From Candidatus Omnitrophota bacterium (lineage in GTDB: Bacteria > Omnitrophota > Gorgyraeia > Gygaellales > Profunditerraquicolaceae), in assembly GCA_028713155.1 (NCBI GenBank), contig JAQTPA010000004.1:8305-72304 (forward strand): a stretch of DNA of 64,000 nt. The letters are read 5' to 3'. The translations under genes were made by a program, and so were the position numbers. The notes beneath the pieces are model-generated. The model had not been told where the DNA came from. It saw only the letters and a list, made by a program, of their open reading frames with translations, and made no database searches. Positions within the stretch are counted from its first letter, which is position 1. Each line of letters starts with the position of its first letter. Positions 7,825 to 33,939 of this stretch are shown here, one piece after another.

Positions 7825-7847
7825 TAAATAAAAAAAGAGATTTAAGT

Positions 7848-7876: not shown

Positions 7877-7894
7877 TTAAAAAAGGCGGTGAAT

Positions 7895-8218: not shown

Positions 8219-8236
8219 AAAGGGTGTTTAGTTTAT

Positions 8237-9709: not shown

Positions 9710-9722
9710 AATAAATTAATTT

Positions 9723-9789
9723 AGGGACCGTTTCCCTCCTTGTGCAGGAATATTCCCAGATCAGGAGGGAAACGGTCCCTGTAGTTTTT
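9723..9789 (+). terminator. long perfect hairpin / rho-independent terminator after pgi
   Basis: 18-bp perfect stem agggaccgtttccctcct / aggagggaaacggtccct with a 22-nt loop, followed by tagttttt. Confidence 0.65.
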
Positions 9790-9802
9790 GAGATGGGTTA
9801 AT

Positions 9803-12318: not shown

Positions 12319-12329
12319 ACGGAGAATTT

Positions 12330-15518: not shown

Positions 15519-15519
15519 T

Positions 15520-17019
15520 ATGAAACGAATACTCATTTTAATTTTAGGGATTCTGACTTGCCTGAGCGGTTGTACTATGGCTCCGAAATATAACCGGCCG
15601 GGGCCTGTGGTCCCTGAGCATTGGCCTAAAGGAGCGGCTTATCCGCAGGTTAGCCCTGCAACCAAGGTTACCGATGCTTTGCAGTTGAGATGGCAGGATT
15701 TTTTTACTGATCCCAAACTGCAGAGGATTATCCAGACAGCTCTGGAGAATAACCGGGACTTGCGGCTGGCTGCCTTGAATATGGAAAAAGCGCGGGCTTT
15801 GTACGGCGTTCAACAGGCTGAATTGTTTCCGGTTCTCGATGCAAATGGGGGCTTGGCCAAACAGCGTTATTCTTCTGATTTTATAGCTACAGGGAATCCG
15901 AAGGTAATCGAACAATACAGCGCTGACCTGGGTATTACTGCCTGGGAGATTGATTTTTTCGGGCGTATCCGCAGCCTGACAAAACAGGCATTAGAGGAAT
16001 ATTTGAGTACGCAGGAGGCCAGACGCAGCGCGCAGATTGCGCTTATCTCAGGGGTGGCCCGGGCGTATTTGGCTATTGCTACGGATGAGTCGGATCTTCA
16101 TTTGGCACGCTCCACCCTTGAAGCGCAGGAAGGCGCTTATAATTTAGTCCTGCGTCGATACAAGGTTAAGCTGGCAAATGAAATAGATTTGCAGCGGGCG
16201 CAAACCCAGGTGGATACAGCCAAGGGAGATGTGATTCTTTATACGCAACGGTTAGCGCAGGATAAAAATGCGCTGGATCTTTTAGCCGGTTCTCCTGTCC
16301 CGGAAGGCCTTTTGCCTGTTGATTTGGCAGGCGTTATTCCCTTTAAAGATATTTTTCCCGGTTTATCTTCCGGTGTGCTTCTTAAGCGGCCGGATATTAT
16401 GGCGGCAGAGCATCAGTTAAAAGGTGCCTATGCTAATATCGGGGCAGCCCGGGCTGCCTTTTTCCCCAGTATTTCGCTGACCACCGCCATTGGTTCGGCA
16501 AGCAGCGCATTTACAGGCTTGTTCTCATCCGGTAAAGGTACCTGGATCTATTCGCCGCAGGTAGTAATGCCTATTTTTGATATGCAGACCTGGGCGGCAT
16601 ATCGGGTGAGTGAAGCAGAGCGGAAAATCGCCTTGACCAAGTATGAGAAAACTATCCAAACAGCTTTTAAGGAAGTAGTCGATGTCTTGGCTGTGCAAGG
16701 TACGGTGGATGAGCAAATCACAGTGCAGCAGTCCATGGTTGATTCCGCGCAGAAGATTTATCAGCTCACAAGCAAACGCTATGTAAATGGGATTGACAGT
16801 TATTTAAGCGTTCTCGATGCCCAGCGTTCGCTCTATCGGGCACAGAAAGAGCTTATTTTGATGCAATTCTATAAACTCGTTAACGAGGTGAAAGCTTATG
16901 CAGTGCTGGGCGGAGGCGCTTTGGATGAGGCGCCTGGGGGTAAGCAAGTTAGTCGAGGTTCCTTTGAAGAAAAGGTTCTTTCGTTATTGGGCCTTAAATT
17001 TCAAGAGCCCAAGCGCTGA
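15520..17019 (+). CDS. outer membrane efflux factor lipoprotein (OprM/NodT family)
   Basis: Start at ATG 15520 ('MKRILILILGILTCLSGC', lipobox), overlapping the pump stop. Two tandem OEP repeats. Confidence 0.85.
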   Translation: MKRILILILGILTCLSGCTMAPKYNRPGPVVPEHWPKGAAYPQVSPATKVTDALQLRWQDFFTDPKLQRIIQTALENNRDLRLAALNMEKARALYGVQQAELFPVLDANGGLAKQRYSSDFIATGNPKVIEQYSADLGITAWEIDFFGRIRSLTKQALEEYLSTQEARRSAQIALISGVARAYLAIATDESDLHLARSTLEAQEGAYNLVLRRYKVKLANEIDLQRAQTQVDTAKGDVILYTQRLAQDKNALDLLAGSPVPEGLLPVDLAGVIPFKDIFPGLSSGVLLKRPDIMAAEHQLKGAYANIGAARAAFFPSISLTTAIGSASSAFTGLFSSGKGTWIYSPQVVMPIFDMQTWAAYRVSEAERKIALTKYEKTIQTAFKEVVDVLAVQGTVDEQITVQQSMVDSAQKIYQLTSKRYVNGIDSYLSVLDAQRSLYRAQKELILMQFYKLVNEVKAYAVLGGGALDEAPGGKQVSRGSFEEKVLSLLGLKFQEPKR

Positions 17020-17081
17020 AGAATTTTCAAAGATAAGCTAACCGATCTTATTTGAAGTATATACGCAATTTACATATAATC

Positions 17082-18527
17082 ATGAAATATAACCACGCCT
17101 TATTCCTGAACCCCTATATTGAAAGCAGCGCTAACAGCACAATGATGCTCTTTCCTCCTGTCGGGCTTGAATATGTGGCTACCAGCGCAAGGGGGTTAGT
17201 CAATAAAATCACCCTTATGGATTTAAGGCATGAGCCGGAATTGGCTGATCCGGAAAAACTCCTGGCCTTTATATCCAGCCGGATCGATATTTTATGCGTA
17301 AGTATCGGTTGGGAGCGCCAGTTTGACGAAATCTGTCAAATGCTCAGCCGCGTGCCGGACCATATAACGCTGGTCGTAGGTGGTTATAAAGCTACCGAAA
17401 AAGTGGAAGAACTTTTTAAGAAATGCCCTACAATCGATATCATTGTTCGGGGTGAGGGCGAAGAAACAATTAAAGAGATATTAAAAGACGAACCGCTTAA
17501 AGATATTCTGGGTATCTCTTACCGCGAAAACGGCTTAATAGTGCATAACCCTAACCGCCCGCTTCCCGGCGTAGATAGATTAGGCTCGCCTGACCGTTCC
17601 CTGCGGCGTAATGAATATTCTTTCGCCTTAAACGGGATAAAAATAGCGGATATAAGCTTTGATTCTGTGTTAAGCGCGCGGGGCTGCCCTTTTAACTGTA
17701 AATTCTGCACCTTCAACTTAAATCCCCTCGGCCAAAAAAGGAATTATTCCGCCCGCAGCGTTGTTTCCGTAGTAGATGAGATACAAAGTTTAAAAGCGGG
17801 AGTGGTCATTCTTAGCGACGATGATTTTTTTGCCGATCCCAAAAGGGCAGAAGAGATTTGCGATCTGATCATTGCCCGAAAGATCAAGAAACGTTTTATG
17901 GCCCAGGCGCGCATAGATATCGCTAAATACCCGCGGCTGCTTGAAAAAATGGTCAAGGCCGGATTCAAGGCGCTTTTAATCGGCATCGAATCCCCGCATA
18001 ACTGGATACTCAAACAGCTCAATAAAGGGTTTAATCAGGAGGCGATCCGGAAATATTTCAAGGTCCTGAATAAATACCCTATTTTTTATAACGGTTATTT
18101 TATTTACGGGAATATCGGCGAGACGGAAAAAGAAATGCTTTATATAGGACAATTTGCCAAGGAGATCGGGGTTGATTCCATCGCCTGCAATAAATTAAGG
18201 ATCGAGAAATTCTCGTCATTAAGAGATTTGGCCGATAAAACTCCCGGTTACCATGTTACTGAAAGGGGAGAACTTTATTCCGATACCTATAGCCACGCCG
18301 CCTTAAAGAAAATAGGCCGGCGGATAAAATTCTCTTTCTACACCCCTTCAAGATACGCCAAAATTCTCTGGAAGAATATTTTTATAGTAAGATTTTTTAC
18401 TCTTAAAGAAATACTTTTTTTCTTAGGCGTGACCCCGCGGCTTTTCATAAGTGTCATTGCCAGAGAATTGCGCCGGGGCAGGCTCGGAGATTCCCTGAAA
18501 AGGACGTTTATCAGTAATAAAAAATAG
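17082..18527 (+). CDS. B12-binding-domain radical SAM protein
   Basis: N-terminus 'ALFLNPY...PPVGLEYVA' is a cobalamin-binding domain. 'CPFNCKFCTF' is the CxxxCxxC radical SAM motif. The ORF track starts at an upstream TTG. Confidence 0.7.
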   Translation: MKYNHALFLNPYIESSANSTMMLFPPVGLEYVATSARGLVNKITLMDLRHEPELADPEKLLAFISSRIDILCVSIGWERQFDEICQMLSRVPDHITLVVGGYKATEKVEELFKKCPTIDIIVRGEGEETIKEILKDEPLKDILGISYRENGLIVHNPNRPLPGVDRLGSPDRSLRRNEYSFALNGIKIADISFDSVLSARGCPFNCKFCTFNLNPLGQKRNYSARSVVSVVDEIQSLKAGVVILSDDDFFADPKRAEEICDLIIARKIKKRFMAQARIDIAKYPRLLEKMVKAGFKALLIGIESPHNWILKQLNKGFNQEAIRKYFKVLNKYPIFYNGYFIYGNIGETEKEMLYIGQFAKEIGVDSIACNKLRIEKFSSLRDLADKTPGYHVTERGELYSDTYSHAALKKIGRRIKFSFYTPSRYAKILWKNIFIVRFFTLKEILFFLGVTPRLFISVIARELRRGRLGDSLKRTFISNKK

Positions 18528-18575
18528 CCATAGATGGTTGAATTTAGAGTTTTATGCCCGTCTATAAACAAAAAA

Positions 18576-18608
18576 GCCCCGATTCCTGCTACCTCTCGGG
18601 GTTCTTTT
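18576..18608 (+). terminator. rho-independent terminator after the radical SAM gene
   Basis: ccccgattcctgctacctctcgggg followed by ttctttt. Confidence 0.55.
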
Positions 18609-18653
18609 GTAGGTGATAGGCCTAATAGCTCCCGCTATCGTCCTAACCTCCTT
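18602..18653 (+). repeat. copy 2 of the ~52-nt conserved terminator-adjacent element
   Basis: ttttgtaggtgataggcctaatagctcccgctatcgtcctaacctcctt. See copy 1 at 1532-1582. Confidence 0.6.
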
Positions 18654-18770
18654 GTTGCTTGTTCCTGTTCTTCCCTACAGCTACAGTATGCCATATATTT
18701 GCCCGGATTTCAAGTCCCTCCTAAAAAATGCTGCTTTAATCCTACGTTGGGTATAGTATAATATCTAAAT

Positions 18771-20867: not shown

Positions 20868-20896
20868 TTGAACTAACGCAGGTGTAGATATATAAT
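20868..20896 (+). promoter_or_regulatory. sigma70-like promoter TTGAAC-17-TATAAT for the KS/CLF cluster
   Basis: -35 at 20868-20873 and -10 at 20891-20896. ATG at 20911 with no Shine-Dalgarno. Confidence 0.5.
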
Positions 20897-20910
20897 GCAT
20901 CAAAATTAAA

Positions 20911-22032
20911 ATGGATAAAAAACGTATAGTCATAACGGGTTTAGGTATAATTTCCAGCGTGGGGATTGGCAAAGAAGCCTTTACTGAGAATATCTTTAAA
21001 GGTATTTCCGGGATAAAGCCGATTACTTCCTTTGATACCGCGCCTTTTAAAGTCAAAGATGCCGGAGAGATAAGCAATTTTGCTCCGGAGGCGATCTTAG
21101 GGCCAAAAGGCCTGCGCACGCTTGACCGGAGCATAAAATTAGTGGCTTCTAGCGCCAAGTTAGCTTTGGATGACAGCGGCCTCGAAATAACCGAAGCTAA
21201 TTCCAGGGATACGGGAATTGCCATAGGTACTACTTTCGGCAGCCTCTCCAGTATTTGCGATTTTGATAAAGAAGCGCTTACTGAAGGAGTGCGCTATGTC
21301 AACCCCGCGCTTTTTCCCAATACGGTAATTAATTCACCGGCCAGCCAGGCCTCCATAAAATTCAATATCAAGGGATTTAATATTACCGTCTCTTCAGGTT
21401 TTTCCGCCAGTCTGGATGCTCTAAATTACGCTTTAGATGCCTTAAGGAATGATCGGGTAAAAATAGCGCTTTGCGGCGGAGTAGAAGAATTCTGTATTCA
21501 GGAATTTTTAGGTTTTTATAAAGCCGGTTGCCTTACCGATACCCGCGGCATAGTTTTAGGGGAGGGCGCCGGTATTTTAATATTGGAAGAACTGAATGCG
21601 GCTTTGGCGCGCAAGGCAAAAATTTACGCTGAACTCCTGGGTTTTGGCTCGGCGATCCAGGATTTAAAAAAATCCATGCAATTAAGCCTGGAAGAGGCGC
21701 TTCTTACGCCTGAAAAAATAGATTATATTAGCAGCGCGGCAAATTCTGCGGAAGAATTTGGCGTAAGCGAGGCAAAAGCAATCGAGGAATTGTTTGGCGA
21801 GAAAGCGAAAACTATCCCGGTAAGTTCGATTAAGCCGCTAGTCGGCGAACTTTTTAGCGCCTCGGGAAGTTTACAGGTTACTGCGGCAATCAGCGCGCTA
21901 GAGAAGCAGGCTGTTCCTCCCATCCTGCTTAATCAGGCTAAGGCTTCTAAAATTGAAAATATCTTGATCAATGCTGCAGGAAAAACCGGTTCTAATTCCA
22001 GCTTGATAATTTCTAAATTTAAGGGATACTAA
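20911..22032 (+). CDS. beta-ketoacyl synthase-like protein lacking catalytic Cys/His/His (chain-length-factor-like KS-beta)
   Basis: Thiolase/KAS fold (N-terminus 'RIVITGLGIISSVGIG', 'GEGAGILILEE', 'KIYAELLGFG'). The active-site Cys region reads 'ITVSSGFSAS'. The His positions read 'SSAANSAEE' and 'GELFSASG'. Confidence 0.7.
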   Translation: MDKKRIVITGLGIISSVGIGKEAFTENIFKGISGIKPITSFDTAPFKVKDAGEISNFAPEAILGPKGLRTLDRSIKLVASSAKLALDDSGLEITEANSRDTGIAIGTTFGSLSSICDFDKEALTEGVRYVNPALFPNTVINSPASQASIKFNIKGFNITVSSGFSASLDALNYALDALRNDRVKIALCGGVEEFCIQEFLGFYKAGCLTDTRGIVLGEGAGILILEELNAALARKAKIYAELLGFGSAIQDLKKSMQLSLEEALLTPEKIDYISSAANSAEEFGVSEAKAIEELFGEKAKTIPVSSIKPLVGELFSASGSLQVTAAISALEKQAVPPILLNQAKASKIENILINAAGKTGSNSSLIISKFKGY

Positions 22033-22036
22033 GTAT

Positions 22037-22783
22037 ATGTTGTTTAAGGATAAGGTAGCAATAGTAACCGGCGGCTCAAGAGGAATAGGCAGGGCCCTGG
22101 TTTTAATGCTGGCGCAGGAAGGGGCGGATGTTGCTTTTACTTACGCCAAAAGCGTCCAGGAAGCAGAATCCTTAAGTTCTGAGATAAAGAAATTGGGCCG
22201 TAAGGTATTAGCCTTGCAAATGGATGTAGCGGATTTTGATAAGGCTAAAGAGCTGGTCGAAAAAGTAAAAGAGGGCCTGGGAAGCCTGGATATACTGGTG
22301 AATAATGCCGGGATAATCCGGGATAAGGCCCTGATGATGATGACTAAAGATGACTGGCGCGAAGTTATTGATACCAATCTTAACGGGACTTTCAATGTTA
22401 CGCGCAACGCCATCGTAACTTTTTTAAAACAGAAAAGCGGCTCAATCGTCAATATTACCTCGGTTAGCGGCGTAGCCGGAATGAGCCGGCAGACTAATTA
22501 TGCCGCTTCGAAAGCCGGGATCATCGGTTTTACCAAATCTTTAGCTAAAGAGGTCGCGCCTTACAATATCCGGGTCAATGCGGTTGCCCCCGGTTTTATT
22601 GAGACGGATATGATCTCGGGCTTAAAAGATGAATTCAAGGAAGGGCTTAAAAAAAAGATACCCCTGTCCAGATTAGGCAGGGTAGAGGATGTTAGCGCGG
22701 CAGTTAAATTTTTATTAAGCGATGCGGCGAATTTTATTACCGGGCAGACCATTATCGTTGATGGCGGATTATTTATACAATAA
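22037..22783 (+). CDS. fabG: 3-oxoacyl-ACP reductase (SDR family)
   Basis: 'VTGGSRGIGRA' Rossmann motif, 'NNAGI' and catalytic 'YAASKAG'. Confidence 0.8.
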   Translation: MLFKDKVAIVTGGSRGIGRALVLMLAQEGADVAFTYAKSVQEAESLSSEIKKLGRKVLALQMDVADFDKAKELVEKVKEGLGSLDILVNNAGIIRDKALMMMTKDDWREVIDTNLNGTFNVTRNAIVTFLKQKSGSIVNITSVSGVAGMSRQTNYAASKAGIIGFTKSLAKEVAPYNIRVNAVAPGFIETDMISGLKDEFKEGLKKKIPLSRLGRVEDVSAAVKFLLSDAANFITGQTIIVDGGLFIQ

Positions 22784-22801
22784 AAGGGAGGGGAAAGCGA
22801 A

Positions 22802-23050
22802 ATGCCGGATTTAGAGAATGAAATAAGGAATATGATTGCGGAGATCGTTGAAAAAGATCCTGCTCAAGTTACTCTGGATGCCAAATTTTTTGAGGAGCTA
22901 GGTATGGATTCGATGATGGCATTGGAGATCATGGCCGGGATGGAAAAAAAATATAAAATTACTATCCCCGAAGAAAAACTTACTCAACTGACTACCTTAA
23001 GGGAAACTGTCGCGGTAGCCAAAGAATACCTGGAAAAAAAGAATGCTTAA
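22802..23050 (+). CDS. acyl carrier protein (cluster-dedicated)
   Basis: 82 aa with 'LGMDSMMALEI' surrounding the phosphopantetheine-attachment Ser. Confidence 0.8.
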   Translation: MPDLENEIRNMIAEIVEKDPAQVTLDAKFFEELGMDSMMALEIMAGMEKKYKITIPEEKLTQLTTLRETVAVAKEYLEKKNA

Positions 23051-23477
23051 TATTGAAGAGATACAAAAAATACTGCCCCAGAAATTTCCTTTTTTGATGA
23101 TCGACCGGGTCTTGGAGCTTGAGCCCGGCAAGAAAATCGTAGCGCTCAAAAATATATCGATTAATGAAAGTTTTTTCGGCGGGCATTTTCCGGGCCAACC
23201 GGTCATGCCCGGGGTTTTAATCATTGAAGCTATGGCCCAGGCTGCAATTATCATGTTTTATTCTCCGGAGAATGTTTCCGGAGACAAGAAGGCCTCTTAC
23301 TATCTGGCCTCGGTCAAGGTAAGATTCCTGCATCCTTTGACTGCGGGCGACCAGCTAAAAATAGAGGTTGAGCCGATCAAGGTGATCTCGGGAGCAGGGT
23401 TAGTCAAGGCTCAAGCCAGCGCCGGAGGCAAAGAAATTGCCAGCGCCGAATTAAGTTTTAGTGTCAAGCATGTATAA
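23043..23477 (+). CDS. fabZ: 3-hydroxyacyl-ACP dehydratase
   Basis: '[11 protein letters not shown]' and '[19 protein letters not shown]' are canonical FabZ hot-dog motifs. Confidence 0.85.
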
Positions 23478-24657
23478 GCGCGTCGTAATTACAGGGTTAG
23501 GAGTAGTATCTTCCATCGGAATAGGTAAAGACGATTTCTGGAAGGCTTTGACCGCAGGAACTTCCGGGATCAGCAAGGTCAGTTCTTTTGATACTTCCGA
23601 ATATCCCACGCATTACGGCGGAGAGGTAAAGGGTTTTAACTCTGAGGCTAAAAATATGGGCCGGGCCTCACAACTAGCAATAGCTTCGGCTAAGCTCGCC
23701 TTAAGTGATGCCGGAATAAAATTAGATAATCCCGGGCTTGCCGAAACCGGCGTGGTTATCGGCACAACTATGGGAGAGTCCCAGGTTCTCGAGAAATTGA
23801 ATGACGCTTGGGTAAAAAAAGGAACCGAGGCAATCGACCCGGCATTAATCCCCCAGTATCCCTGTAATGTGCTTTCACTGAATGTCGCTAAGGAATTAAA
23901 ACTAAATGGACCAAACCTGGTTATACCTAATGCCTGTGCTGCGGGGAATTACGCTATAGGCTATGCCTATGATCTTATCCGTATGGCTAGGGTTGATACT
24001 ATGTTGGCAGGAGGCACAGACGCGTTTTCCCGGATCGCCTTTATCGGTTTTAACCGGCTGCTCGCGGTTGCGCCGGAGAAATGCCAGCCGTTTGATAAGA
24101 ACAGGAAAGGGATGCTGGTAGCCGAGGGTTCGGCAATGATTCTTATTGAAACGCTGGAGGCAGCCTTAAAAAGAGGCGCGCAAATTTACGCTGAGATTTT
24201 AGGCTATGGTTTAAGTTGCGATGCCCATCATATGACCGCGCCTTTTTCCGAAGGGATAGAAGAAGCTATTGAGAAAGCGCTTAAACAGAGTAAGATCCCG
24301 CCGGAAAGAATAGATTATTTCAGCGCTCACGGCACAGGAACACCCGCTAATGACCGGGAAGAGTGCGGGGCAATAAAAAAAGTATTCGGCGATTATTCTA
24401 AAAAATTACCGGTCAGTTCCATTAAATCCATGCTGGGGCATACCATGGGAGCTGCTTCGGCAATTGAGGCAGTTGCCTGCGCCTTAAGCGTTAAAAATGA
24501 TATTATTCCTCCCACGATAAATTTCCAGACTCCTGATCCGGAGTGCAATATTGACTGTGTCCCGAATGTTGCCCGTGCGGCAAGGGTAGATGTTGCTTTA
24601 AACAGCGCTTCTGCTTTTGGCGGGAATAACGCCTGCCTGGTGCTTAAGAAGTTTTAG
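23461..24657 (+). CDS. beta-ketoacyl-ACP synthase (catalytic KS, FabF/FabB-like)
   Basis: Catalytic Cys in '[13 protein letters not shown]', His in '[11 protein letters not shown]' and 'GHTMGAAS'. Confidence 0.85.
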
Positions 24658-25786
24658 AAACAGGATCCATGTTCTTGGGCTCAATTAACGGTTTGATCAT
24701 CCGGATAATAAAGTTAAGGATCGGGTTAAAAGCCCTGGCGTATATATCTAACGCTACGAGTTTGGCTCCCAGCCGTATTTTAGGATGATAGTCGCTAAAA
24801 CCCGGTTGATAAGCTTTAAGCTTATGCTCTATGCACCACTCAATATTATGACAGAAAGTCGTATAATAAAGGTGGTATTTATGGGCTACCGTGTAATCAA
24901 ATCCGATGAATTTATCGATAAATATGCCTTCTTTGATCAAGCATAAATTGAAGGCTACGATTTTATCCTTATCATAAGTAATGAAATATTTAGCTACCCC
25001 GGGCATATTTTTACAGATATCCAGAAAGAATTTCCTGGTAAGGGTTTCAAAATGTACGTCCGCTTCAGCAACATTGTTCAGGTATAGTTTGTAGATATCG
25101 TCGATTATATCGGTTATATCCAGGCGTTCTTCGGTTTTAAGCTGAACAATTTCCCCTGAGCGGCGTAATTTCTTTTTGAGGTCTTTGCGGGTGTTCCTGC
25201 TTAATCCTCGCAGATAATCTTCCAGCGAACCCGCCATTATATTAATTGCGGTAGTAGGCAGTGTCTCCATTTTTATGAATTTTATTCTTTTGAGGTATTC
25301 GGCAAGCTTTAAGGATTTAGCCGAGAGGTTATAGAAGGCCATTCCTAATATCTTTTCTCTTTTAGAAAATTCCTGCAATTTTTCCAGCGCCTGGTCTAAG
25401 GCTGCTTCAAGATCTACTTCAGGAGATAACCCCATTGAAAATCCTTCGGTGGTAGGCGAGCCGGCAAAAAGGAGTTTTATTTTTAACCAGCGGCCGAGGA
25501 CTGCGGCTGCTTTATGCAGGTATTCAGGGAGGAGCATCGCAAAAGAGAAATCCATCACAAAGAAAGGCAGGATTAATACGCTACGGTTTTTTTCTTTTCC
25601 GACCAGGTAGCCGAAAGAAAATTCTTCAGTTCCGCCTTCCTCCAGGGTTTTTAAGTAACCGTAGCTTTCAACCAGGTCCTGGCCAAAAAGCCTATCCCAA
25701 TCTTCCGCAGGTATAGCGCGTATCTTTTTAACTATGGAAAAGCTTAAGTCCGGCAGGGTTTCTTTCATAGGGCTGTAGTATAACAA
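24644..25786 (-). CDS. DUF482/FemAB-like GNAT-fold protein (COG3146 family)
   Basis: 380 aa and the only minus-strand gene in the window. The C-terminal block '[30 protein letters not shown]' matches the conserved DUF482 core. Confidence 0.55.
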
Positions 25787-25831
25787 AAAGAGCCCCCCCG
25801 CACAATTAAAAAATTATTTTTTAGCGTTTTG

Positions 25832-25840
25832 TGGTACAAT
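25832..25840 (+). promoter_or_regulatory. extended -10 promoter element TGgTACAAT, leaderless-type
   Basis: TG at 25832-33 and TACAAT at 25835-40. The ATG at 25850 lies 9 nt downstream with no SD. Confidence 0.4.
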
Positions 25841-25849
25841 ATTCCTCTT

Positions 25850-26695
25850 ATGGATAATACGGGTTCCCGGAAATTTGATTTTTTCCTGAAAGGCAGTAAT
25901 GGCAAGGCAGTTTTGCTCATTCACGGCATCACCGGCACGCCTTCCGAAATGAATTATTTAGGCAAGTCTTTGCATAAAGCCGGCTTTAGCGTAGTTTGCA
26001 ATACCCTGCCCAAACATTGCCGGAGCCTGGGCGAGCTAAGGAGAGTTACCTGGCAGGAGATAGCCTGTGCTTGCGTTAAAGACCTGGAGGGCCTTAAAAA
26101 TGAGTATTCCGAGGTTTCTGTAGGCGGGCTATCTATGGGCGCGCTTATGGCTGTCCATCTTGCTTATAAATACCCGCATTTAGTCTCTAGAATTATTGCT
26201 TTGGCTCCCACTATCTTTTACGACGGCTGGGCAGTGCCTAAGCGGAAAATATTAATGGATATCTTATGGTATGTGCCTTTTATCCGGAACAGGTTTGATA
26301 TCAGGGAGAGTTGGCCTTACGGTTTAAAAAATGAACTCTTAAGAGCAGGTATGGAGAGGTTTTATCGCAACGCCAAAGCATCGGTAAATGATGGCCGGGT
26401 AGCTATTTTTGGCAGCCCATTTTTTCCGATGAGCTGCCTTTATCAGCATCACCTCCTCGCTAAAATAGTTAAACAGGAACTATCCGGCGTACGTGCACCC
26501 ATCCTTATTATTCATGCTAAAGATGACGATATGACCAGTTTTAAGAACGCGCAATACGTGTACGAGCGCATCGGCTCTCCGGACAAATCTTTAATCATGC
26601 TCGACGACAGCTATCATATGATAACTATTGATAAGCAGAAGAGTAAAGTCGCGGAAGAAGTGCTTAAATTCCTGAATAAACCCAATAATAATTGA
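25850..26695 (+). CDS. alpha/beta-fold hydrolase (esterase/thioesterase-like)
   Basis: Nucleophile elbow 'GLSMG' and a possible oxyanion-hole 'HGITG' in 'LLIHGITGTPSEM'. Start placed at ATG 25850. Confidence 0.65.
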   Translation: MDNTGSRKFDFFLKGSNGKAVLLIHGITGTPSEMNYLGKSLHKAGFSVVCNTLPKHCRSLGELRRVTWQEIACACVKDLEGLKNEYSEVSVGGLSMGALMAVHLAYKYPHLVSRIIALAPTIFYDGWAVPKRKILMDILWYVPFIRNRFDIRESWPYGLKNELLRAGMERFYRNAKASVNDGRVAIFGSPFFPMSCLYQHHLLAKIVKQELSGVRAPILIIHAKDDDMTSFKNAQYVYERIGSPDKSLIMLDDSYHMITIDKQKSKVAEEVLKFLNKPNNN

Positions 26696-28200
26696 ATATG
26701 GAATATGACGCAATTATAATCGGCGCGGGGGCCGCGGGGTTAACTGCCGCGGTTAAATTGTCCTCCTTGGGCAAGAAGATCCTCCTCTTAGAGAAACAGC
26801 CTGTTCCGGGAGGTTTTGCTACTACCTTTAACCGGAAGGGTTTTATCTTTGAGAGCGCCTGGCATTGTGTTGACGGCCTGCAGGAAGGGGGAGAGCTAAG
26901 GAATTTTCTTGAGGAATACGGCATTATTCAAAAAATAAATTTTATTGAGCTTAAGGATTTTAGCCGGATTATCTATCCGGAGCATGATTTTACCGCCGGA
27001 TTTAACCGCGATAGTTTCGTAAAGTACCTTAAAAAAAGTTTTCCGCAGGAAAGCAGAGGCATCGAAAGGCTCTTTGGCGCCTTTGATAGGTTCTACCGGC
27101 AGCTTGACCGGTACTCTTATTCTAAGATACCCGTATCCTTAAAGATCGCATTGGCCCCGATTCTGTACCCTGAAATTATCCGGGCATCCTTTATTACCGC
27201 CGAGCAGTTTATCGGGAAATTTATCACTGATGCCAAGCTTAAAGGCATCCTTACGGATATCTGGAGTTTTATCGGCCTTGCGCCCGGCAGGCTTTCGGCG
27301 TTTTATTATCTTATTGTCTTCCGGGGGTATTATTATTTGCCGACATCCTATGTCAAGGGAAGCTCCCGCGAACTTTTCAAGGCAATGGCGGAGAAGATCA
27401 GGGAAAATGGTTCGGAGATAAAATTTAATACTCCGGCCGTAAGGATTATTACGGACGATGGTAAAGCGGTTAAGGCCGTAGTTACCGATAAAGAGGAAAT
27501 ATTTAAAGCTAAAGTTGTAATAAGTAATGCCAATCCTATCGATACTTTGGAGAACCTTATTGATAGCCCCGTAACGAGAGGGAGATACCATAAAAATTTA
27601 GCCGGTTTAGAGAAATCAATTTCAGCTTGTCAGGTATATCTGGGATTAAAGAAGCCGGCGAAAGATCTGGGCATGGATCATTTTATGTTTTCCGTAAATA
27701 CTAGCTATAGCCATGAAGAGGATCTTGAGTCTTGCCTGAGCGCGGACTATGATAATTGTTCTTTTTCGCTGGTGGACCATGCTCAGGTGGAACCTGCGTT
27801 AGTGCCTGACGGAAAGGGGAGTCTTATAATTATGGCCATAGACTCTTACACTAATTGGGAAAAGCTTTCTCCGCAAGAATATAAGCTAAAAAAACAGGTG
27901 GTGGCCAAGAGGTTAATCCAGCGGGCTGAAAAGTATTTGCCGGGGCTGGCCGAAGCTATTGAAGCAATGGAAATAGCTACCCCCAAGACTATGGAGCGCT
28001 ATGGTTCTGCGCCTGGGGGCGCGATTTACGGGTTTGCCCAGACTCCGGAACAGTCAACTTTCCGTAGATTCCCTTTAAAAACTGAAGTAAGGGGCTTGTT
28101 TTTAACCGGCGCCTGGACTCAGCCAGGCGCAGGGGTTCATGCCTGTTTTATCTCCGGAATGGATGCCGCAAAATCGGCCTTGAATTCTTTAAGACGATGA
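26692..28200 (+). CDS. FAD-dependent oxidoreductase, phytoene-desaturase (CrtI)/amine-oxidase superfamily
   Basis: N-terminal 'YDAIIIGAGAAGLTAA' dinucleotide-binding motif. Its ~500-aa length and C-terminal FAD motif region are typical of COG1233. Confidence 0.7.
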   Translation: MNMEYDAIIIGAGAAGLTAAVKLSSLGKKILLLEKQPVPGGFATTFNRKGFIFESAWHCVDGLQEGGELRNFLEEYGIIQKINFIELKDFSRIIYPEHDFTAGFNRDSFVKYLKKSFPQESRGIERLFGAFDRFYRQLDRYSYSKIPVSLKIALAPILYPEIIRASFITAEQFIGKFITDAKLKGILTDIWSFIGLAPGRLSAFYYLIVFRGYYYLPTSYVKGSSRELFKAMAEKIRENGSEIKFNTPAVRIITDDGKAVKAVVTDKEEIFKAKVVISNANPIDTLENLIDSPVTRGRYHKNLAGLEKSISACQVYLGLKKPAKDLGMDHFMFSVNTSYSHEEDLESCLSADYDNCSFSLVDHAQVEPALVPDGKGSLIIMAIDSYTNWEKLSPQEYKLKKQVVAKRLIQRAEKYLPGLAEAIEAMEIATPKTMERYGSAPGGAIYGFAQTPEQSTFRRFPLKTEVRGLFLTGAWTQPGAGVHACFISGMDAAKSALNSLRR

Positions 28201-28838
28201 AAGTAACTACCGGTAAATTTAAGGGCAGAAATATCCGTATACCTAAAGGCATACGGCCAACCCAGGGTAAGGCCAGGAAGGCGGTTTTTGATATCCTTGG
28301 TGATATAGAGGGTTTGTCTTTCCTGGAGTTATTTGCCGGTTCCGGCGCGGTAGGTATAGAGGCAGCTTCGCGAGGCGCCGCAGAGGTGGTTTTTGTAGAG
28401 AATAACCCTAATGTTCTCAGGGTGTTATCTTCCAATACTTCAGGTATATTAGATACTAAATACCTGCCTGACGGCAGGCAGGCTGCATACTATATTTTAT
28501 CGCAAAGTGTGGAGAGCGCACTGGCGCGCCTGGGCCGGGAGAAGAGAAAATTTGATCTTATCTTCCTGGATCCTCCGTATTATATCCCTAAGGTCCCTCG
28601 TTCCGAGACTCAGGTAGCAGGGCACTCGGGATCAACGGCAGCCGGAAATAGCGAGCCGTTGGTAAAAAAAACCTTGCAAACTCTTGAGGGTTATGATATA
28701 TTATCGCCCAATGGCTTGATAATTGCGCAGCATTTTAAGAAAGAAAATCTCCCAGATTCCCTGGGAGTTTTAAGTTTATTCAGACAGTATCGATATTCGC
28801 ACACCCTGCTTTCCTTATACAAAAGGAAGGAGCTTTAA
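28197..28838 (+). CDS. rsmD: 16S rRNA (guanine966-N2)-methyltransferase
   Basis: N-terminal 'VTTGKFKGRNIRIPKGIRPTQGKARKAVFDIL' and SAM-binding 'LELFAGSGAVGIEAASRGA'. Confidence 0.75.
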   Translation: MKVTTGKFKGRNIRIPKGIRPTQGKARKAVFDILGDIEGLSFLELFAGSGAVGIEAASRGAAEVVFVENNPNVLRVLSSNTSGILDTKYLPDGRQAAYYILSQSVESALARLGREKRKFDLIFLDPPYYIPKVPRSETQVAGHSGSTAAGNSEPLVKKTLQTLEGYDILSPNGLIIAQHFKKENLPDSLGVLSLFRQYRYSHTLLSLYKRKEL

Positions 28839-28841
28839 TTT

Positions 28842-29330
28842 ATGTGCCAGGCAGCAATATATCCGGGGACTTTTGATCCGGTAACCTACGGTCATATTGA
28901 CCTGATTAAAAGAGCGCAGGCGATTTTTTCTGAAGTGATTGTAGCGGTAGCCTGTAACCCGCAAAAAAAGCCGCTTTTTCCGGTTAAGGAGAGGGTAGCG
29001 ATGCTTAAAAAGGCTACTGTTGATTTAAGAGGGGTTGAAGTCGTTGATTTTGACGGCTTGGTAGTGGATTACGCGCATAAGCGAAAAGCACAGGTCCTGA
29101 TCAGGGGCCTGCGGATGATTTCGGATTTTGAATACGAATTTCAGATGGCCCTGACTAACCGCAAACTTTCACCCGACGTAGAGACCATTTTTCTTATGCC
29201 GCATGAATCGTATAGCTATCTTTCTTCCAGGCTTTTAAAGGAAGCAGCCTCTTTAGGGGCGGATTTATCCAGCTTTGTCCCGGATTTTGTGGAAAAAGCG
29301 CTTAAGGTAAAGTTGCGCGGCAAGCGGTGA
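28842..29330 (+). CDS. coaD: phosphopantetheine adenylyltransferase
   Basis: 'YPGTFDPVTYGHIDLI' HxGH nucleotidyltransferase motif. Confidence 0.9.
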   Translation: MCQAAIYPGTFDPVTYGHIDLIKRAQAIFSEVIVAVACNPQKKPLFPVKERVAMLKKATVDLRGVEVVDFDGLVVDYAHKRKAQVLIRGLRMISDFEYEFQMALTNRKLSPDVETIFLMPHESYSYLSSRLLKEAASLGADLSSFVPDFVEKALKVKLRGKR

Positions 29331-29934: not shown

Positions 29935-30978
29935 ATGAAGATAGTCGTTGATGCCATGGGCGGGGATTACGCGCCCGATGTAGTCATCCAGGGGACATTA
30001 GCTGCGGTTAAGGAATACGGCGCAGATGTAATTTTAGTCGGGGACGAGGCGAAAATAAATCCTCTGCTTAAAAAAACCAAGTATTCCGGCCCCCAAATCA
30101 GCGTAGTGCATGCGCCGGAGACAATCGGGATGTGCGAGTCTGCCGCTCTCAGCGTGCGCAGGAAAAGGAAATCTTCCATTGTTATCGGCGTGAACCTGGT
30201 GAAGGAAGGTAAGGCTGGCGCGTTCTTTAGCGCCGGAAACACCGGCGCAGTCGTTTGCGCGGCGACTTTGGGTTTAGGTCTTATTCCCGGAGTTGAGCGG
30301 CCGGGCATAGCGATCATAACTCCTACCTTAAAAGGAAGCTCTCTGATTATTGACGTTGGCGCTAATATTGATCCGAAGCCGACCCAGCTTTTGCAATACG
30401 CGATTATGGCTGATGTTTACAGCCGGACCATCTTGAATAAGACCGATCCTTCCATAGGATTATTGAATATCGGCGAAGAAGAGGCTAAGGGCACTGAATT
30501 TATGCGCGAGACGCATGAATTGCTTCAGACGAGCAATCTTAATTTTATCGGTAATGTCGAAGGAAAGGATTTTTTCTCCGGCAAGGCCGATATTATTGTC
30601 TGCGACGGGTTTGTAGGCAATGTCGCGCTGAAGGTTTCGGAAAGCGCGGTTGCCGTGATGCAGGTATTTTTAAAGAGGCATTTATTAAGCAATCCTTTGG
30701 GTAAATTAGGATTGCTTTTTCTTTTACCGAGTTTAAAGCGTTTTAAAAAAGAGCTGAATTATGCCGAATACGGCGGCGCTCCCTTGCTGGGGGTTAACGG
30801 CGTAACGATAATCGGCCATGGCCGTTCTAATGTCAAGGCGATAAAGAATGCCATCAGGGTAGCCAAGGAAGAGATTGAGCGCAAGTTTAATGAGAAGATA
30901 ATCGAGGCCATCGGTAAGAGACGGTCCTTGCCTGAACGCCAGCCAGACCCTTCGGAAACAACCCCAATTAAGGAGTAA
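29935..30978 (+). CDS. plsX: phosphate acyltransferase PlsX
   Basis: 'KIVVDAMGGDYAP' at the N-terminus and 'GFVGNVALK'. Confidence 0.9.
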   Translation: MKIVVDAMGGDYAPDVVIQGTLAAVKEYGADVILVGDEAKINPLLKKTKYSGPQISVVHAPETIGMCESAALSVRRKRKSSIVIGVNLVKEGKAGAFFSAGNTGAVVCAATLGLGLIPGVERPGIAIITPTLKGSSLIIDVGANIDPKPTQLLQYAIMADVYSRTILNKTDPSIGLLNIGEEEAKGTEFMRETHELLQTSNLNFIGNVEGKDFFSGKADIIVCDGFVGNVALKVSESAVAVMQVFLKRHLLSNPLGKLGLLFLLPSLKRFKKELNYAEYGGAPLLGVNGVTIIGHGRSNVKAIKNAIRVAKEEIERKFNEKIIEAIGKRRSLPERQPDPSETTPIKE

Positions 30979-30979
30979 T

Positions 30980-31957
30980 ATGCGTAAAGTGGGTATAACC
31001 GGTGTAGGAGAGTATCTGCCGCCAAGAGTCCTGACCAACGCGGACTTAGAAAAAATGGTGGATACCTCGGATGAATGGATTACCACCCGAACCGGCATAA
31101 AAGAACGCCGGATTGCTTGCGCTAACGAGGCTACTTCGGATTTAGCGCTTAAGGCAGCTAAAGAGGCATTGGCCGATGCGCGTTTAAATCCTGAAGAACT
31201 GGATTTGATCATTGTCGCTACCATTACTCCCGATATGCAGTTTCCTTCGGTTGCTTCCATCGTCCAGAATGCCCTTCGCGCTAAAACTGCCGTTGCTTTT
31301 GATGTATCCGCTGCCTGTGCGGGGTTTATTTACGCTTTATCCATTGCCCAGCAATTTATCAGCCTGGGTACCTATAGGAATGCGCTGGTCATCGGCGCGG
31401 AAAAACTTTCTTCGGTTACGGACTGGCAAGACCGCAATACCTGTGTATTATTCGGAGACGGCGCCGGCGCCTGCGTTTTGAAAGAAGTTAAAACCGGAGG
31501 CATAATTTCTACTTACCTTGGGTGCGACGGCTCAAATATGGAATTATTAAATCTTCCTGCCGGAGGGAGCCGCCTGCCGGCATCTCAGGTGACAGTTGAG
31601 GCCAGGCAGCATTTCCTGAAAATGCAGGGGAATGAATTATTTAAAATTGCTGTCAGGACCATGACTGAGGCCGCCGAGAAGGTTTTAAAACAGGCGGGTA
31701 TGGATTTTTCCGATGTGGACATGATCATCCCGCACCAGGCGAATGCGCGGATTATTATGGCGGTCGGTAAGAGATTGGGGTTAAGCGGAGATAAAATCTT
31801 CCTTAATATAGAAAAATACGGGAATATGTCCAGTGCCTCTACGGCTACGGCTTTAGTTGAGGCAGTCAAAGAAGGCAGGGTTAAAAAAGGCGACATCGTT
31901 CTTTTAGATTCTTTTGGCGCGGGGCTGGTCTGGGGAGCCTGCGTTATCGAATGGTAG
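30980..31957 (+). CDS. fabH: 3-oxoacyl-ACP synthase III
   Basis: Active-site 'AACAGF', 'HQAN' and 'GNMSSAS' motifs. Confidence 0.9.
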   Translation: MRKVGITGVGEYLPPRVLTNADLEKMVDTSDEWITTRTGIKERRIACANEATSDLALKAAKEALADARLNPEELDLIIVATITPDMQFPSVASIVQNALRAKTAVAFDVSAACAGFIYALSIAQQFISLGTYRNALVIGAEKLSSVTDWQDRNTCVLFGDGAGACVLKEVKTGGIISTYLGCDGSNMELLNLPAGGSRLPASQVTVEARQHFLKMQGNELFKIAVRTMTEAAEKVLKQAGMDFSDVDMIIPHQANARIIMAVGKRLGLSGDKIFLNIEKYGNMSSASTATALVEAVKEGRVKKGDIVLLDSFGAGLVWGACVIEW

Positions 31958-32850
31958 CTTATCTTTTCAGCGGCCAGGGCAGCCAATATGTGGGGATGGG
32001 AAAGGACTTGTATGAAAGTTTTCCCGAAGCCCGGGCCATATTCGACAGGGCGCAAGGGTTGTTAGGTTTTGACCTTAAGAAAATCTGTTTTGAGGGCCCT
32101 GAAGAGCAGCTGAAGGTAACCAAAATATCCCAGCCTGCGATTGTCACGCTGAGTATTGCTGCGTATGAAGCTTTTAAAGCTAAAAGCAAAGCTACTCCCG
32201 GCTATATGGCGGGTTTAAGCCTGGGAGAATACAGTGCTTTGATCGCTTCAGGAGCACTTACCTTTGAAGACGGCATCCGCTTGATCAAGAGAAGAGGCGA
32301 GTTAATGGACGACGCAGCTAAAAAATATCCCGGAGGGATGGCTGCTATCCTGGATTTAACCGTGGATAAGATCAAAGAGATTTGCGCATCCAGCGGTGCT
32401 GAAATAGCTAACTTAAATTGTCCGGGCCAGGTGGTTGTTTCGGGTTCAAGCCTAGCCATAAATAAAGTTATACCTTTATGCGTTGAAGCAGGAGCAAAAC
32501 GGGTAATTCCGCTGGAAGTCAGCGGAGCTTTCCATTCTTCGCTTATGGCTCAAGCCGCGCAAGGCCTTAGGGAAGCGTTGGATAAAACTAATATTAGCGC
32601 GCCTTTTGTGCCAATTATCAGTAATTATACGGCTTTGCCCCAGGATAAACCCGAGCAAATCAAAGAAAACCTCATCCAACAGATGCGTTCTTCGGTAAGA
32701 TGGGAAGATTCAATGAAATTCCTGTTATCTAAAGGCGCCGGGAATTTCATTGAATTCGGCCCGGGTAAAGTCCTGAAAGGCCTGATGCGTAAGATCGATC
32801 CTGTTGCTCAGGTTATTAATATAGAGAAAAAAGCGGATATAGGGGGATAA
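31951..32850 (+). CDS. fabD: malonyl-CoA:ACP transacylase
   Basis: '[10 protein letters not shown]' and active-site '[10 protein letters not shown]'. Confidence 0.9.
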
Positions 32851-32851
32851 T

Positions 32852-33595
32852 ATGAAATTGAAAGATAAGGTTGCTTTGATTACCGGCGGCGCCCGGGGTA
32901 TAGGCCAGGCTATTGCGATGACCTTTGCCAGGGAAGGCGCGGATATCGTAGTAGCTGACGTAAACCTGGAAGTAGCCCAAAAAACAGCTTCTGAGATAGA
33001 GGCTTTAGGCAGGCAGGCGTTGGCTTTGGAGATGGATGTTACGGATTATGCCAAAGTAGAGCCCGGAGTGAACAAAATTCTTGACAAATTCGGAAAGGTT
33101 GATATATTAGTTAACAACGCTGGGATTACCAAGGACAATCTTATCTTAAGAATGTCCCAGGGAGAGTGGGATGCGGTGATAAACGTGAACCTTAAAGGCA
33201 CGTTTAACTGCATTAAGGCAGTCTCCCGGCCGATGATAAAACAGAGAAGCGGTAAGATTGTAAGTATTGCTTCTATTATCGGTTTAATGGGTAACGCGGG
33301 GCAGGCAAATTATGCCGCCTCTAAAGCCGGAATAATTGCTCTTACAAAGACCGTAGCTAAAGAATTGGCAAGCCGCAATATTAATGCCAATGCAGTAGCT
33401 CCCGGATTCATCCAAACCGAAATGACCGCCAAGCTTTCCGAAGAGGTAAAAGCTAAAATGCTGGAAGCTATACCCTTGGCTAAATTAGGTACGCCCCAGG
33501 ATGTGGCAAATGTTTGTTTATTCCTGGTTAGCGAAGAAGCAAATTATATCACCGGGCAGGTAATTACTGTTGATGGCGGCATGGTTATGGCGTAA
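32852..33595 (+). CDS. fabG: 3-oxoacyl-ACP reductase (housekeeping)
   Basis: '[11 protein letters not shown]', 'NNAGI' and 'YAASKAG'. Confidence 0.9.
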
Positions 33596-33620
33596 GTATT
33601 CTAACAAGGAGGAAAAAAGA

Positions 33621-33863
33621 ATGGCAGTTCAAGAGAAAGTTAAATCTATAATAGCAGAACAATTAGGGGTAAAGCCCGAAGAAGTTACTCCCGAGGCATC
33701 CTTTGTCGATGACTTGGGTGCGGATTCTTTGGATACCGTAGAGTTGGTTATGGCCTTAGAAGAGGAATTCGGCATTGAAATACCCGATGAAGATGCTGAA
33801 AAGATAGCTACTGTCGGTGATGCTGTTAAGTATATTGAAACTAAAAGCGCTAACAAACAATAA
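33621..33863 (+). CDS. acpP: acyl carrier protein (housekeeping)
   Basis: Start at ATG 33621 behind RBS aggagg. '[26 protein letters not shown]'. Confidence 0.9.
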
Positions 33864-33888
33864 TTTATATAGATAGTGTAATAAACTA

Positions 33889-33920
33889 CCCCGCTATTTT
33901 TGTTTAGCGGGGTAAGTTTT
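33889..33920 (+). terminator. rho-independent terminator/attenuator after acpP
   Basis: ccccgc tatttttgttta gcgggg followed by taagtttt. Confidence 0.55.
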
Positions 33921-33939
33921 AGTTACCTCTTATGGACAT

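Follow-up and report, generated by a model that had tools for sequence, protein, structure and literature searches.

Anaerobic ammonium-oxidizing (anammox) bacteria carry a putative ladderane cluster, Cluster I (KustE3603-3608), which encodes amxFabF2, amxFabFmut, amxACP and amxFabZ (Dietl et al., 2023, PMC10139942; Granatino et al., 2026, 10.64898/2026.05.19.726425). Ladderane biosynthesis is still unsolved, and structural work treats the acyl carrier protein (ACP) amxACP, the dehydratase amxFabZ and the amxFabF heterodimer as anammox-specific (PMC10139942; 10.64898/2026.05.19.726425), Cluster I itself being called unique to ladderane producers (10.64898/2026.05.19.726425). The anammox ketosynthase pair is active only as a heterodimer; it decarboxylates malonyl-ACP, thus priming synthesis, and works best with C6-C8 probes, which are saturated, while Phe135, Thr138 and Val139 of amxFabFmut line the substrate tunnel and their mutation alters chain-length preference (10.64898/2026.05.19.726425). 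amxFabZ handles chains up to C8, works on amxACP and not on canonical ACP, and is recognized by Ile69, where canonical enzymes have Gly, and by a hydrophobic residue at position 115, where they have Arg or Lys (PMC10139942). Similar clusters were noted in a few deltaproteobacteria (Rattray et al., 2009), and Omnitrophota is one of nine phyla with antiSMASH 'ladderane' calls, reported without gene-level analysis (Geller-McGrath et al., 2023, PMC9902471). In this work we analysed 64,000 nt of a Candidatus Omnitrophota genome (GCA_028713155.1, contig JAQTPA010000004.1, positions 8,305-72,304 of the forward strand), hereafter the window, in which positions 20868-28200 (all positions are those of the 64-kb window) hold a compact cluster for an active ketosynthase (KS), a catalytically dead ketosynthase resembling a chain-length factor (CLF), a 3-ketoacyl-ACP reductase (KR), an ACP, a FabZ-type dehydratase (DH), a FemAB-like protein, an alpha/beta hydrolase and a phytoene-dehydrogenase-like (PDH-like) flavoprotein (Table 1). 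Judged by their sequences, these genes most likely form the Omnitrophota counterpart of the Cluster I core, without its B12-binding radical SAM enzyme.

The relationship is clearest for the two ketosynthases. In the first, the Cys-His-His residues are replaced by Phe, Ala and Glu, with Lys retained (motifs SGFSAS, SAANS and GELFSA), and this dead active site is identical in all 16 homologues read; in the second the triad is intact (motifs ACAAG, HGTGT and GHTMGA). An earlier note on this DNA had described a first KS lacking catalytic residues and a fully catalytic second one, set together with a dedicated ACP, a KR and a DH, and the sequences confirm this pairing. In a search of PDB sequences the best solved relative of the KS, the CLF, the ACP and the DH alike was an anammox Cluster I protein. 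The KS scored 519 bits with amxFabF2 (chain B of 9s5h/9s5i, best match 9s5h_B), compared with 349 for the ishigamide ketosynthase Iga11 (6kxd_A), at most 323 for FabF proteins and 246 for the actinorhodin KS; the CLF scored 276 bits with amxFabFmut (9s5h_C), at most 168 with FabF proteins and 89 with the actinorhodin CLF. The top matches of the ACP were 7qv0_D and 7auf_A, both anammox amxACP, and 9s5i_E, and those of the DH were 7qv0_A and 8ayb (amxFabZ, 138 bits), with the entries 8ayc and 8ayi. The nearest relatives thus belong to the fatty-acid-synthase-like KS/CLF system of anammox Cluster I, so that a characterized relative does exist (PDB 9s5h/9s5i, 7qv0 and 7auf; 10.64898/2026.05.19.726425), where the earlier note could name none.

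Direct BLAST comparison with two Cluster I reference loci, fetched with the amxFabFmut sequence from a Brocadiaceae genome (L083, CP064969.1) and from Scalindua (L084), gave 57% identity for the KS (Scalindua amxFabF2), 50% for the DH (Scalindua amxFabZ), 43% for the ACP and 41% for the CLF, while for the FabF of the window and the anammox KS the value is only 45%. The PDH-like flavoprotein and the Cluster I PDH are only 26-30% identical (183-210 bits); they belong to the same superfamily and are syntenic, but their orthology is doubtful. In the Brocadiaceae locus the amxFabF2 region (8724-9949) is annotated as two genes, for 340 and 61 amino acids, and its translation contains stop codons, probably because of a frameshift or an assembly error. 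Neighbour joining placed the anammox KS as the sister of the 58 Omnitrophota cluster KSs taken together (bootstrap 70/100), with the window's FabF outside. The CLF was placed by nearest-neighbour distances and not by the neighbour-joining backbone: among the best 150 representatives, clustered at 50% identity from about 15 billion proteins, the proteins closest to the anammox CLFs, other anammox proteins apart, are CLFs of Omnitrophota. Dead KSs form a large family, in which the Cys, His, Lys and His positions usually read X-x-Lys-Glu, and about 45 of the 150 representatives are fused KS-CLF proteins of about 800 residues. In these fusions (P0364, P0368, P0375, P0376, P0392, P0395 and about 40 others) the active KS (Cys/His/Lys/His/Phe) is N-terminal and the dead one C-terminal. 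Taxon names were available for almost none of the representatives; one fusion is labelled Acidobacteriota and another Candidatus Helarchaeota.

Residues that are diagnostic in the anammox enzymes are shared. The window DH has both amxFabZ signatures, Ile69 and Ile115, and among 60 Omnitrophota cluster DHs Ile69 is found in 45, Gly69 in none, and Arg or Lys at 115 in none; the E. coli FabZ sequence used as a canonical reference served to illustrate the statement made in PMC10139942. The CLF tunnel residues F135, T138 and V139 show little or no variation among 76 Omnitrophota CLFs. On the KS side, Cys165, His298, His335, the gate residue Phe394, Ala164, Phe203 and Met337 are kept, but at the tunnel position Ala110 56 of 58 Omnitrophota KSs have Met, a bulkier residue.

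The cluster is separate from the housekeeping fab operon. Proteins of the window were assigned by Pfam and NCBIfam profile searches, and all six products of a canonical plsX-fabH-fabD-fabG-acpP-fabF operon pass their NCBIfam equivalog cut-offs; this operon, which the earlier note had correctly recognized, lies 1.7 kb downstream of the cluster. The housekeeping FabF scores 635.8 on TIGR03150, for a cut-off of 493.75, whereas the cluster KS (422.7) and CLF (247.2) are below that cut-off and are therefore not canonical FabF proteins, and the cluster ACP is also below its NCBIfam cut-off (56.7 vs 70.45). The cluster KR and DH do pass the FabG and FabZ equivalog cut-offs (for the KR, 313.9 vs 297.75 on TIGR01830, with motifs TGGSRGIG and YAASK). 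Identities between paralogues of the window are 43% for KS and FabF, 30% for CLF and FabF, 49% for KR and FabG and 30% for ACP and AcpP. The coexistence of a complete equivalog-passing set agrees with the earlier proposal of a paralogous, specialized acyl-chain system distinct from the canonical fab operon.

The arrangement is widespread in the phylum. One genome per GTDB species was scanned for CLF relatives, and 80 of the 294 loci were kept for synteny analysis by tblastn of the window proteins, a locus being counted as complete when at least 7 kb was available downstream (n = 45). The best protein matches of the dead KS are all from Candidatus Omnitrophota metagenome-assembled genomes (MAGs), first at 99-75% identity and then in a long tail near 55%. 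The kept loci are likewise nearly all from Omnitrophota, and one of them belongs to the complete Ca. Velamenicoccus archaeovorus genome (L050); the other labels are 'uncultured Planctomycetales/Planctomycetia' for some, 'bacterium' for two, and an Elusimicrobiota single-cell genome for one. The five-gene core is present in most of 81 distinct loci (of 294 matches), nearly everywhere in the order CLF-KR-ACP-DH-KS, and among the 45 complete loci KR is found in 41, ACP in 40, KS in 39, DH in 37 and a PDH-like gene in 31. Recurrence of this order in dozens of independent genomes puts the arrangement far beyond chance, and the synteny suggested by the earlier note as a check is thus present across Omnitrophota. 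The hydrolase and the flavoprotein type found here occur with the core in one sub-clade (14 of the 45 complete loci, 19 loci overall). The window otherwise contains core genes (Mla transporter, PGI, Dus, RND efflux, RecG, RsmD, CoaD, and leucine, arginine and lysine biosynthesis), the immediate neighbours of the cluster are recG, rsmD and coaD, and base composition is flat; the RND efflux genes at 11215-17019 are of generic AcrAB-OEP types. The phylum has conserved this module in a core-genome context; it is no sporadic secondary-metabolite island. The earlier note had asked whether this gene order might be the standard housekeeping fab arrangement of the phylum: the module is indeed phylum-conserved in a core context, but a complete canonical fab set lies beside it, and because the two coexist, phylum-wide conservation fails to refute a specialized pathway.

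What varies among the loci is how the product might leave the ACP. The hydrolase has a GLSMG nucleophile elbow, matches 5xks (89 bits) and 8hea in the PDB, and resembles bacterial monoacylglycerol lipases and Est30 esterases; in one locus (L009) its gene overlaps the KS stop codon. More distant Omnitrophota versions have instead an acyl-ACP-reductase/PigE-N-terminal-like gene between CLF and KR, or a thioester-reductase-domain gene, and also a nitroreductase-like gene, histidine kinases and a second PDH-like type, up to 35-37% identical to the anammox PDH. In the 81 loci the hydrolase (19 loci), the thioester-reductase-like gene (13) and the acyl-ACP-reductase-like gene (9) never occur together. 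This mutual exclusion suggests that the three are alternatives for freeing the product from the ACP, and makes the hydrolase a plausible off-loading enzyme, in keeping with the thioesterase-like role proposed for it earlier. For the FemAB-like protein there was no PDB sequence match, and a literature search on DUF482, PF04339 and COG3146 gave nothing useful. Its AlphaFold2 model (pLDDT 86) is a tandem GNAT, two fused GNAT domains, and Foldseek matched it to FemX (7z6a, E 8e-12, TM 0.57), Sbb17, the clavulanate tandem GNAT 2wpw and MprF synthase domains, with TM scores of about 0.57, which agrees with the FemAB-like GNAT fold assigned in the earlier note. Sbb17 is an aminoacyl-tRNA-dependent peptide synthase and the MprF domain an aminoacyl-phosphatidylglycerol synthase, and the fold family also includes acyl-CoA users such as N-myristoyltransferase. 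Named homologues of this protein are all from Omnitrophota, and the gene is optional, being present in 8 of 14 complete type-A loci.

Taken together, these properties make it probable that the cluster encodes a self-priming heterodimeric KS/CLF line, which would build a short or medium acyl chain, have it tailored by the flavoenzyme and release it by hydrolysis, giving a specialized lipid or precursor other than a ladderane. FabD of the neighbouring housekeeping operon would load malonate on the dedicated ACP; the KS/CLF heterodimer, as shown for its anammox homologue, would decarboxylate malonyl-ACP, prime itself and elongate the chain. Each round would be processed by the KR and the Ile69-type FabZ, whose catalytic motifs are intact, and the narrow CLF and DH tunnels, with their conserved residues, may bias the line to short or medium chains of about C6-C12. 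Since the cluster encodes no enoyl reductase, the chain would either be reduced in trans or stay unsaturated. More speculatively, the PDH-like flavoprotein might act on a C=C bond, by desaturation, isomerization or saturation. The hydrolase, given its position and its mutual exclusion with the thioester reductases, may release or transfer the chain, and the optional tandem GNAT could conceivably join an amino or aminoacyl group to the product or to a lipid derived from it. Several observations weigh against this interpretation. The Omnitrophota proteins are known here as sequences, the biochemistry being that of their anammox homologues. No enoyl reductase was found in or near the cluster or anywhere in the 64-kb window, and the cluster DH is the sole FabZ-type gene of the window, so that independence from bulk fatty-acid synthesis may be incomplete. 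The KS bootstrap of 70 comes from a simple neighbour-joining tree with one full-length anammox sequence, and the backbone of the CLF tree has bootstraps below 25. The off-loading role of the hydrolase is read from genomic context. The flavoprotein is below the cut-off of every curated CrtI/carotenoid-isomerase model (172 on TIGR02730, 164 on crtI_fam) and its identity to the anammox PDH does not exceed the 26-30% given above, while the gene for the FemAB-like protein lies on the other strand, and some close relatives, L001 among them, lack it.

Ladderane lipid biosynthesis, which an antiSMASH-type label would imply, has next to no probability in our opinion. The KS, CLF, ACP, FabZ and PDH families are common to the cluster and to Cluster I, and antiSMASH 'ladderane' calls do exist in Omnitrophota MAGs (PMC9902471), but ladderanes are known only from anammox Planctomycetota according to the literature consulted, and the cluster has no Cluster-I-type B12 radical SAM enzyme, a lack that makes a non-ladderane product most likely. 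The B12 radical SAM protein encoded nearby, at 17052-18527, was considered as the Cluster I enzyme and rejected, as it scores 53.7, for a cut-off of 360, on TIGR04072 (rSAM_ladder_B12), the curated model of the ladderane-cluster enzyme, and shows 23-26% identity to the anammox protein; its best curated matches, HpnJ and BchE, are far below cut-off. Orthologues of it, 73-89% identical and so more conserved than the CLF, lie 2-7 kb from the CLF gene in four other genomes (L004, L006, L012 and L016), which leaves room for a loose link with the cluster. Among all fetched loci, L016 is the only one with a second B12 radical SAM gene directly upstream of CLF, and the product is a weak (28%) homologue of the Cluster I enzyme. 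In more distant Omnitrophota clusters the gaps searched for a radical SAM gene hold acyl-ACP-reductase-like, thioester-reductase, nitroreductase, methyltransferase and histidine-kinase genes. Lipid data for Omnitrophota, an uncultured phylum, were not found in the literature searched. A highly reducing type II polyketide synthase (PKS) or an aryl-polyene-type pathway, making a conjugated polyene acyl chain that is tailored by the flavoprotein and attached to a lipid or an amine, would account for a KS/CLF, KR, DH and ACP without an enoyl-reductase-type domain in 20868-28200. Among solved relatives of the KS, Iga11 ranks second (349 bits), and it is the closest structural neighbour of amxFabF2 (10.64898/2026.05.19.726425), and the DH has weak ApeP-like/ApeI-like Pfam matches in precomputed annotations. 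Nevertheless, the KS is far nearer amxFabF2 (519 bits) than Iga11, the CLF relatives that come after amxFabFmut are FabF proteins, with the actinorhodin CLF at 89 bits, and the anammox homologues accept saturated C6-C8 probes. The cluster encodes no starter-activating ligase (ApeH-type or CoA), methyltransferase, glycosyltransferase, LPLAT/APE-type acyltransferase or LolA/MMPL export protein, and the core-genome setting and phylum-wide conservation are also unfavourable, so that we regard a polyene product as rather unlikely. The absence of a CoA ligase and an ammonia lyase nearby had been seen in the earlier note; its description of the KS-alpha/KS-beta pair with ACP, KR and DH as a type II PKS or aryl-polyene-type system needs correction, as the closest relatives are in anammox Cluster I and the CLF has Phe and not Gln.

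Two other explanations place the module in primary metabolism. It could be an integral branch of primary fatty-acid synthesis, for instance an oxygen-independent unsaturation route replacing FabA/FabB by means of the PDH-like flavoprotein and the special KS, a role that fits its phylum-wide presence in a core context, often beside rsmD-coaD-plsX-fabHDG, and the occurrence of a PDH-like gene with the core in 31 of 45 loci. Likewise, the KR and DH of the cluster score above the cut-offs for FabG and FabZ, no other FabZ and no FabA or FabB was found in the window, and an anaerobic route to polyunsaturated fatty acids has been proposed for related clusters of Kuenenia and Desulfotalea (Rattray et al., 2009). 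We nonetheless consider it unlikely: the dedicated ACP, with only 30% identity to AcpP, speaks for insulation from bulk fatty-acid synthesis, amxFabZ is inactive on canonical ACP in the anammox system, the homologues are biased to short chains, and variable reductive or hydrolytic off-loading suggests a released product and not a phospholipid precursor. The other explanation is a dedicated octanoyl-ACP synthase that feeds LipB for lipoylation, like mitochondrial fatty-acid synthesis. In 14 Omnitrophota loci, including that of Ca. Velamenicoccus archaeovorus, CLF is directly preceded on its own strand by genes for a dihydrolipoyl-dehydrogenase-like protein, LipB and a free-standing lipoyl domain, LipB scoring 142 bits on TIGR00214 for a cut-off of 83.55; the anammox homologues prefer C8 or shorter chains, and the chain-limiting residues are kept, with Met for KS Ala110 in 56 of 58. 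In the Velamenicoccus locus the dihydrolipoyl-dehydrogenase-like gene, lipB and a 90-amino-acid lipoyl domain occupy 7284-9520, and an HTH_17 gene lies between them and CLF. The same neighbourhood also holds aconitase, isocitrate dehydrogenase and malate dehydrogenase genes, so adjacency may be plain core-genome synteny. In addition, a Pfam scan of window genes showed no lipB, lipA or lipoyl protein. LipB requires a C8 chain that is saturated, and no enoyl reductase is encoded; nor does lipoylation call for the thioester reductases, the hydrolase or the PDH-like flavoprotein. We regard such a function as unlikely.

The coordinates of the cluster and of its context are collected in Table 1. The positions and domains of all eight genes were as given in the earlier note, according to the list of open reading frames (ORFs) and the Pfam and NCBIfam searches. 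A gene caller used ATG 23470 for the KS and ATG 25850 for the hydrolase on a near-identical ENA contig, and these are the likely starts. As had also been seen, the junctions are tight or overlapping: in order, 4 nt, 18 nt, an 8-nt overlap and an 8-17-nt overlap within the five-gene core, then a 14-nt convergent overlap of the KS and FemAB-like stops, and a 4-nt overlap, which indicates translational coupling, between the hydrolase and CrtI-like genes. A further 4-nt overlap (ATGA) joins the flavoprotein stop to the start of rsmD (rsmD-coaD, 28197-29330, plus strand), with coaD 3 nt further, so that the co-directional gene string extends into rsmD-coaD-yceD. The specialized cluster, coaD (a gene for the CoA/ACP cofactor) and the canonical fab operon thus follow one another in a single long run of genes with the same direction, and the order cluster-rsmD-coaD-fab is also found in L001, L006, L011, L017, L024 and L055. 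The promoter sequence TTGAAC-17-TATAAT assigned to the cluster earlier is present, but it is weak evidence of a promoter, because such matches are common in the region: 25 promoter-like sites were found in 11.7 kb, for 18 +/- 3.8 expected.

Table 1. Features of the cluster at 20868-28200 and of its context in the window
Feature	Position	Strand	Basis or remark
Promoter-like TTGAAC-17-TATAAT	20868-20896	+	In the 46-nt gap after recG; 10/12 match
Dead ketosynthase (CLF-like, amxFabFmut-type)	20911-22032	+	Pfam ketoacyl-synt N and C domains
FabG-type 3-ketoacyl-ACP reductase (KR)	22037-22783	+	TIGR01830, motifs
Dedicated acyl carrier protein (amxACP-like)	22802-23050	+	PP-binding domain, DSM Ser motif
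FabZ-type dehydratase (DH), amxFabZ signatures Ile69 and Ile115	23043-23477	+	PDB matches, residues
Active ketosynthase (KS, amxFabF2-type), Cys-His-His intact	23461-24657	+	Motifs, PDB, tree
FemAB_like (DUF482) tandem-GNAT putative acyl/aminoacyl transferase, convergent with KS, optional accessory	24644-25786	-	PF04339 and PF13480
Alpha/beta hydrolase, monoacylglycerol-lipase/Est30-like, proposed off-loading enzyme	25829-26695	+	Hydrolase_4
Phytoene-dehydrogenase/carotenoid-isomerase-like FAD protein (PDH-like, CrtI-like)	26692-28200	+	Amino_oxidase domain
Canonical plsX-fabH-fabD-fabG-acpP-fabF operon (context, outside the module)	29935-35187	+	NCBIfam equivalogs
B12-binding radical SAM protein (context, uncertain linkage), 2.4 kb upstream	17052-18527	+	Pfam B12-binding and Radical_SAM

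Other features of the window were also recorded. Scans of the window for Rfam families and tRNAs gave no match. A candidate for a conserved small RNA, without an Rfam family, lies at about 18575-18705 on the minus strand, between the B12 radical SAM gene and recG; it consists of a promoter-like CTTGAAWT-N17-CATACT, a variable stretch, a near-invariant AAGGAGG..GATAGCGRAAGCTATTAGGCCTATCACCTAC and a rho-independent terminator. It is found in L001, L002, L006, L011, L034, L037 and L058, always 0.7-3.8 kb upstream of the CLF gene, and in L002 it keeps this proximity although recG is elsewhere. On the plus strand, the 75-amino-acid ORF at 18534-18761 is probably not a real gene. Among lysine and folate biosynthesis genes, the plus strand encodes a homologue of the STT3-type oligosaccharyltransferase (855 amino acids, 53071-55638) and a PMT_2 glycosyltransferase (59976-61175). 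Two plus-strand ORFs, 39863-41389 (508 amino acids) and 848-1498 (216 amino acids), had no Pfam match at E <= 1e-6.

A cluster of this kind is known, while its conservation across Omnitrophota, the shared diagnostic residues and the swappable off-loading genes appear to be undescribed in the literature searched; the two large genomic surveys of Omnitrophota that were searched mention neither lipids or lipid synthesis nor ketosynthases. The presence of close homologues with the same diagnostic residues as the conserved core of a non-anammox phylum questions the premise that Cluster I is unique to ladderane producers, and makes it likely that the B12 radical SAM enzyme is what is specific to ladderanes. 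Going further, one can tentatively picture the KS/CLF, amxACP, Ile69-FabZ and PDH core as an older, Omnitrophota-wide module making an acyl or enoyl block of about C6-C8, which in anammox bacteria would serve as the precursor or the linear part, the B12 radical SAM enzyme being then truly ladderane-specific. In Omnitrophota the block would be released as an acid (in this window) or as an aldehyde or alcohol (in other lineages) and enter an undescribed lipid class or feed LipB; we regard this whole scenario as possible, with more doubt than belief. The Omnitrophota clusters are in any case simpler natural variants, a core plus one hydrolase or one reductase, with which the product of the shared core can be probed, and they flag an unrecognized lipid or cofactor pathway in the phylum.

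Comparison with other known systems delimits the module. With the ishigamide PKS (Iga11 KS/Iga12 CLF, PDB 6kxd-f) it shares a (here predicted) heterodimeric KS/CLF, an ACP, a KR, a DH and the lack of an enoyl reductase, but it has no amide-forming or starter-specific enzymes and is part of a core genome, not of an actinomycete secondary-metabolite cluster. Like the aromatic type II PKS of actinorhodin (PDB 1tqy), it pairs an active KS with an inactive partner of the sort that sets chain length and supports malonyl-ACP decarboxylation; it differs from it by a CLF with Phe and not Gln, by scores of 246 and 89 bits for KS and CLF, by the absence of cyclases and aromatases, and by full KR and DH processing. 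The resemblance to mitochondrial fatty-acid synthesis (OXSM to LipB/LIPT2) is a working one only, that of a second, ACP-dedicated system biased to C8, given that OXSM is a homodimer, that the mitochondrial system has an enoyl reductase and that there is no lipB near the cluster of the window. The fatty-acid-synthase-II-like clusters of Desulfotalea psychrophila, Geobacter and Pelobacter (Rattray et al., 2009), compared here by description only, are Cluster-I-like sets outside anammox bacteria, with dead FabF paralogues, PDH-like and radical SAM genes. From Cluster I itself the Omnitrophota module is distinguished by its host, which is not a member of the Brocadiales, by the order CLF-KR-ACP-DH-KS instead of ACP-DH-KS-CLF-PDH-rSAM (rSAM, radical SAM), by a KR encoded within the cluster, and by Phe at the CLF Cys position, where the anammox proteins have Val or Thr; Phe is listed at this position for the Kuenenia paralogue Kuste2805 (Rattray et al., 2009), and Kuste2805 and Kuste2803 have in common the Cys-to-Phe change and a neighbouring B12 radical SAM gene. 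No Cluster-I-type B12 radical SAM gene is present in 20868-28200, and there are extra genes: this window has the hydrolase and the tandem GNAT, while other Omnitrophota have thioester reductases, a nitroreductase and histidine kinases. The two systems have in common an active KS with a dead partner, a dedicated ACP, an Ile69-type FabZ, a flavoprotein of the PDH superfamily, the ACP-DH-KS sub-order, and the tunnel and signature residues.

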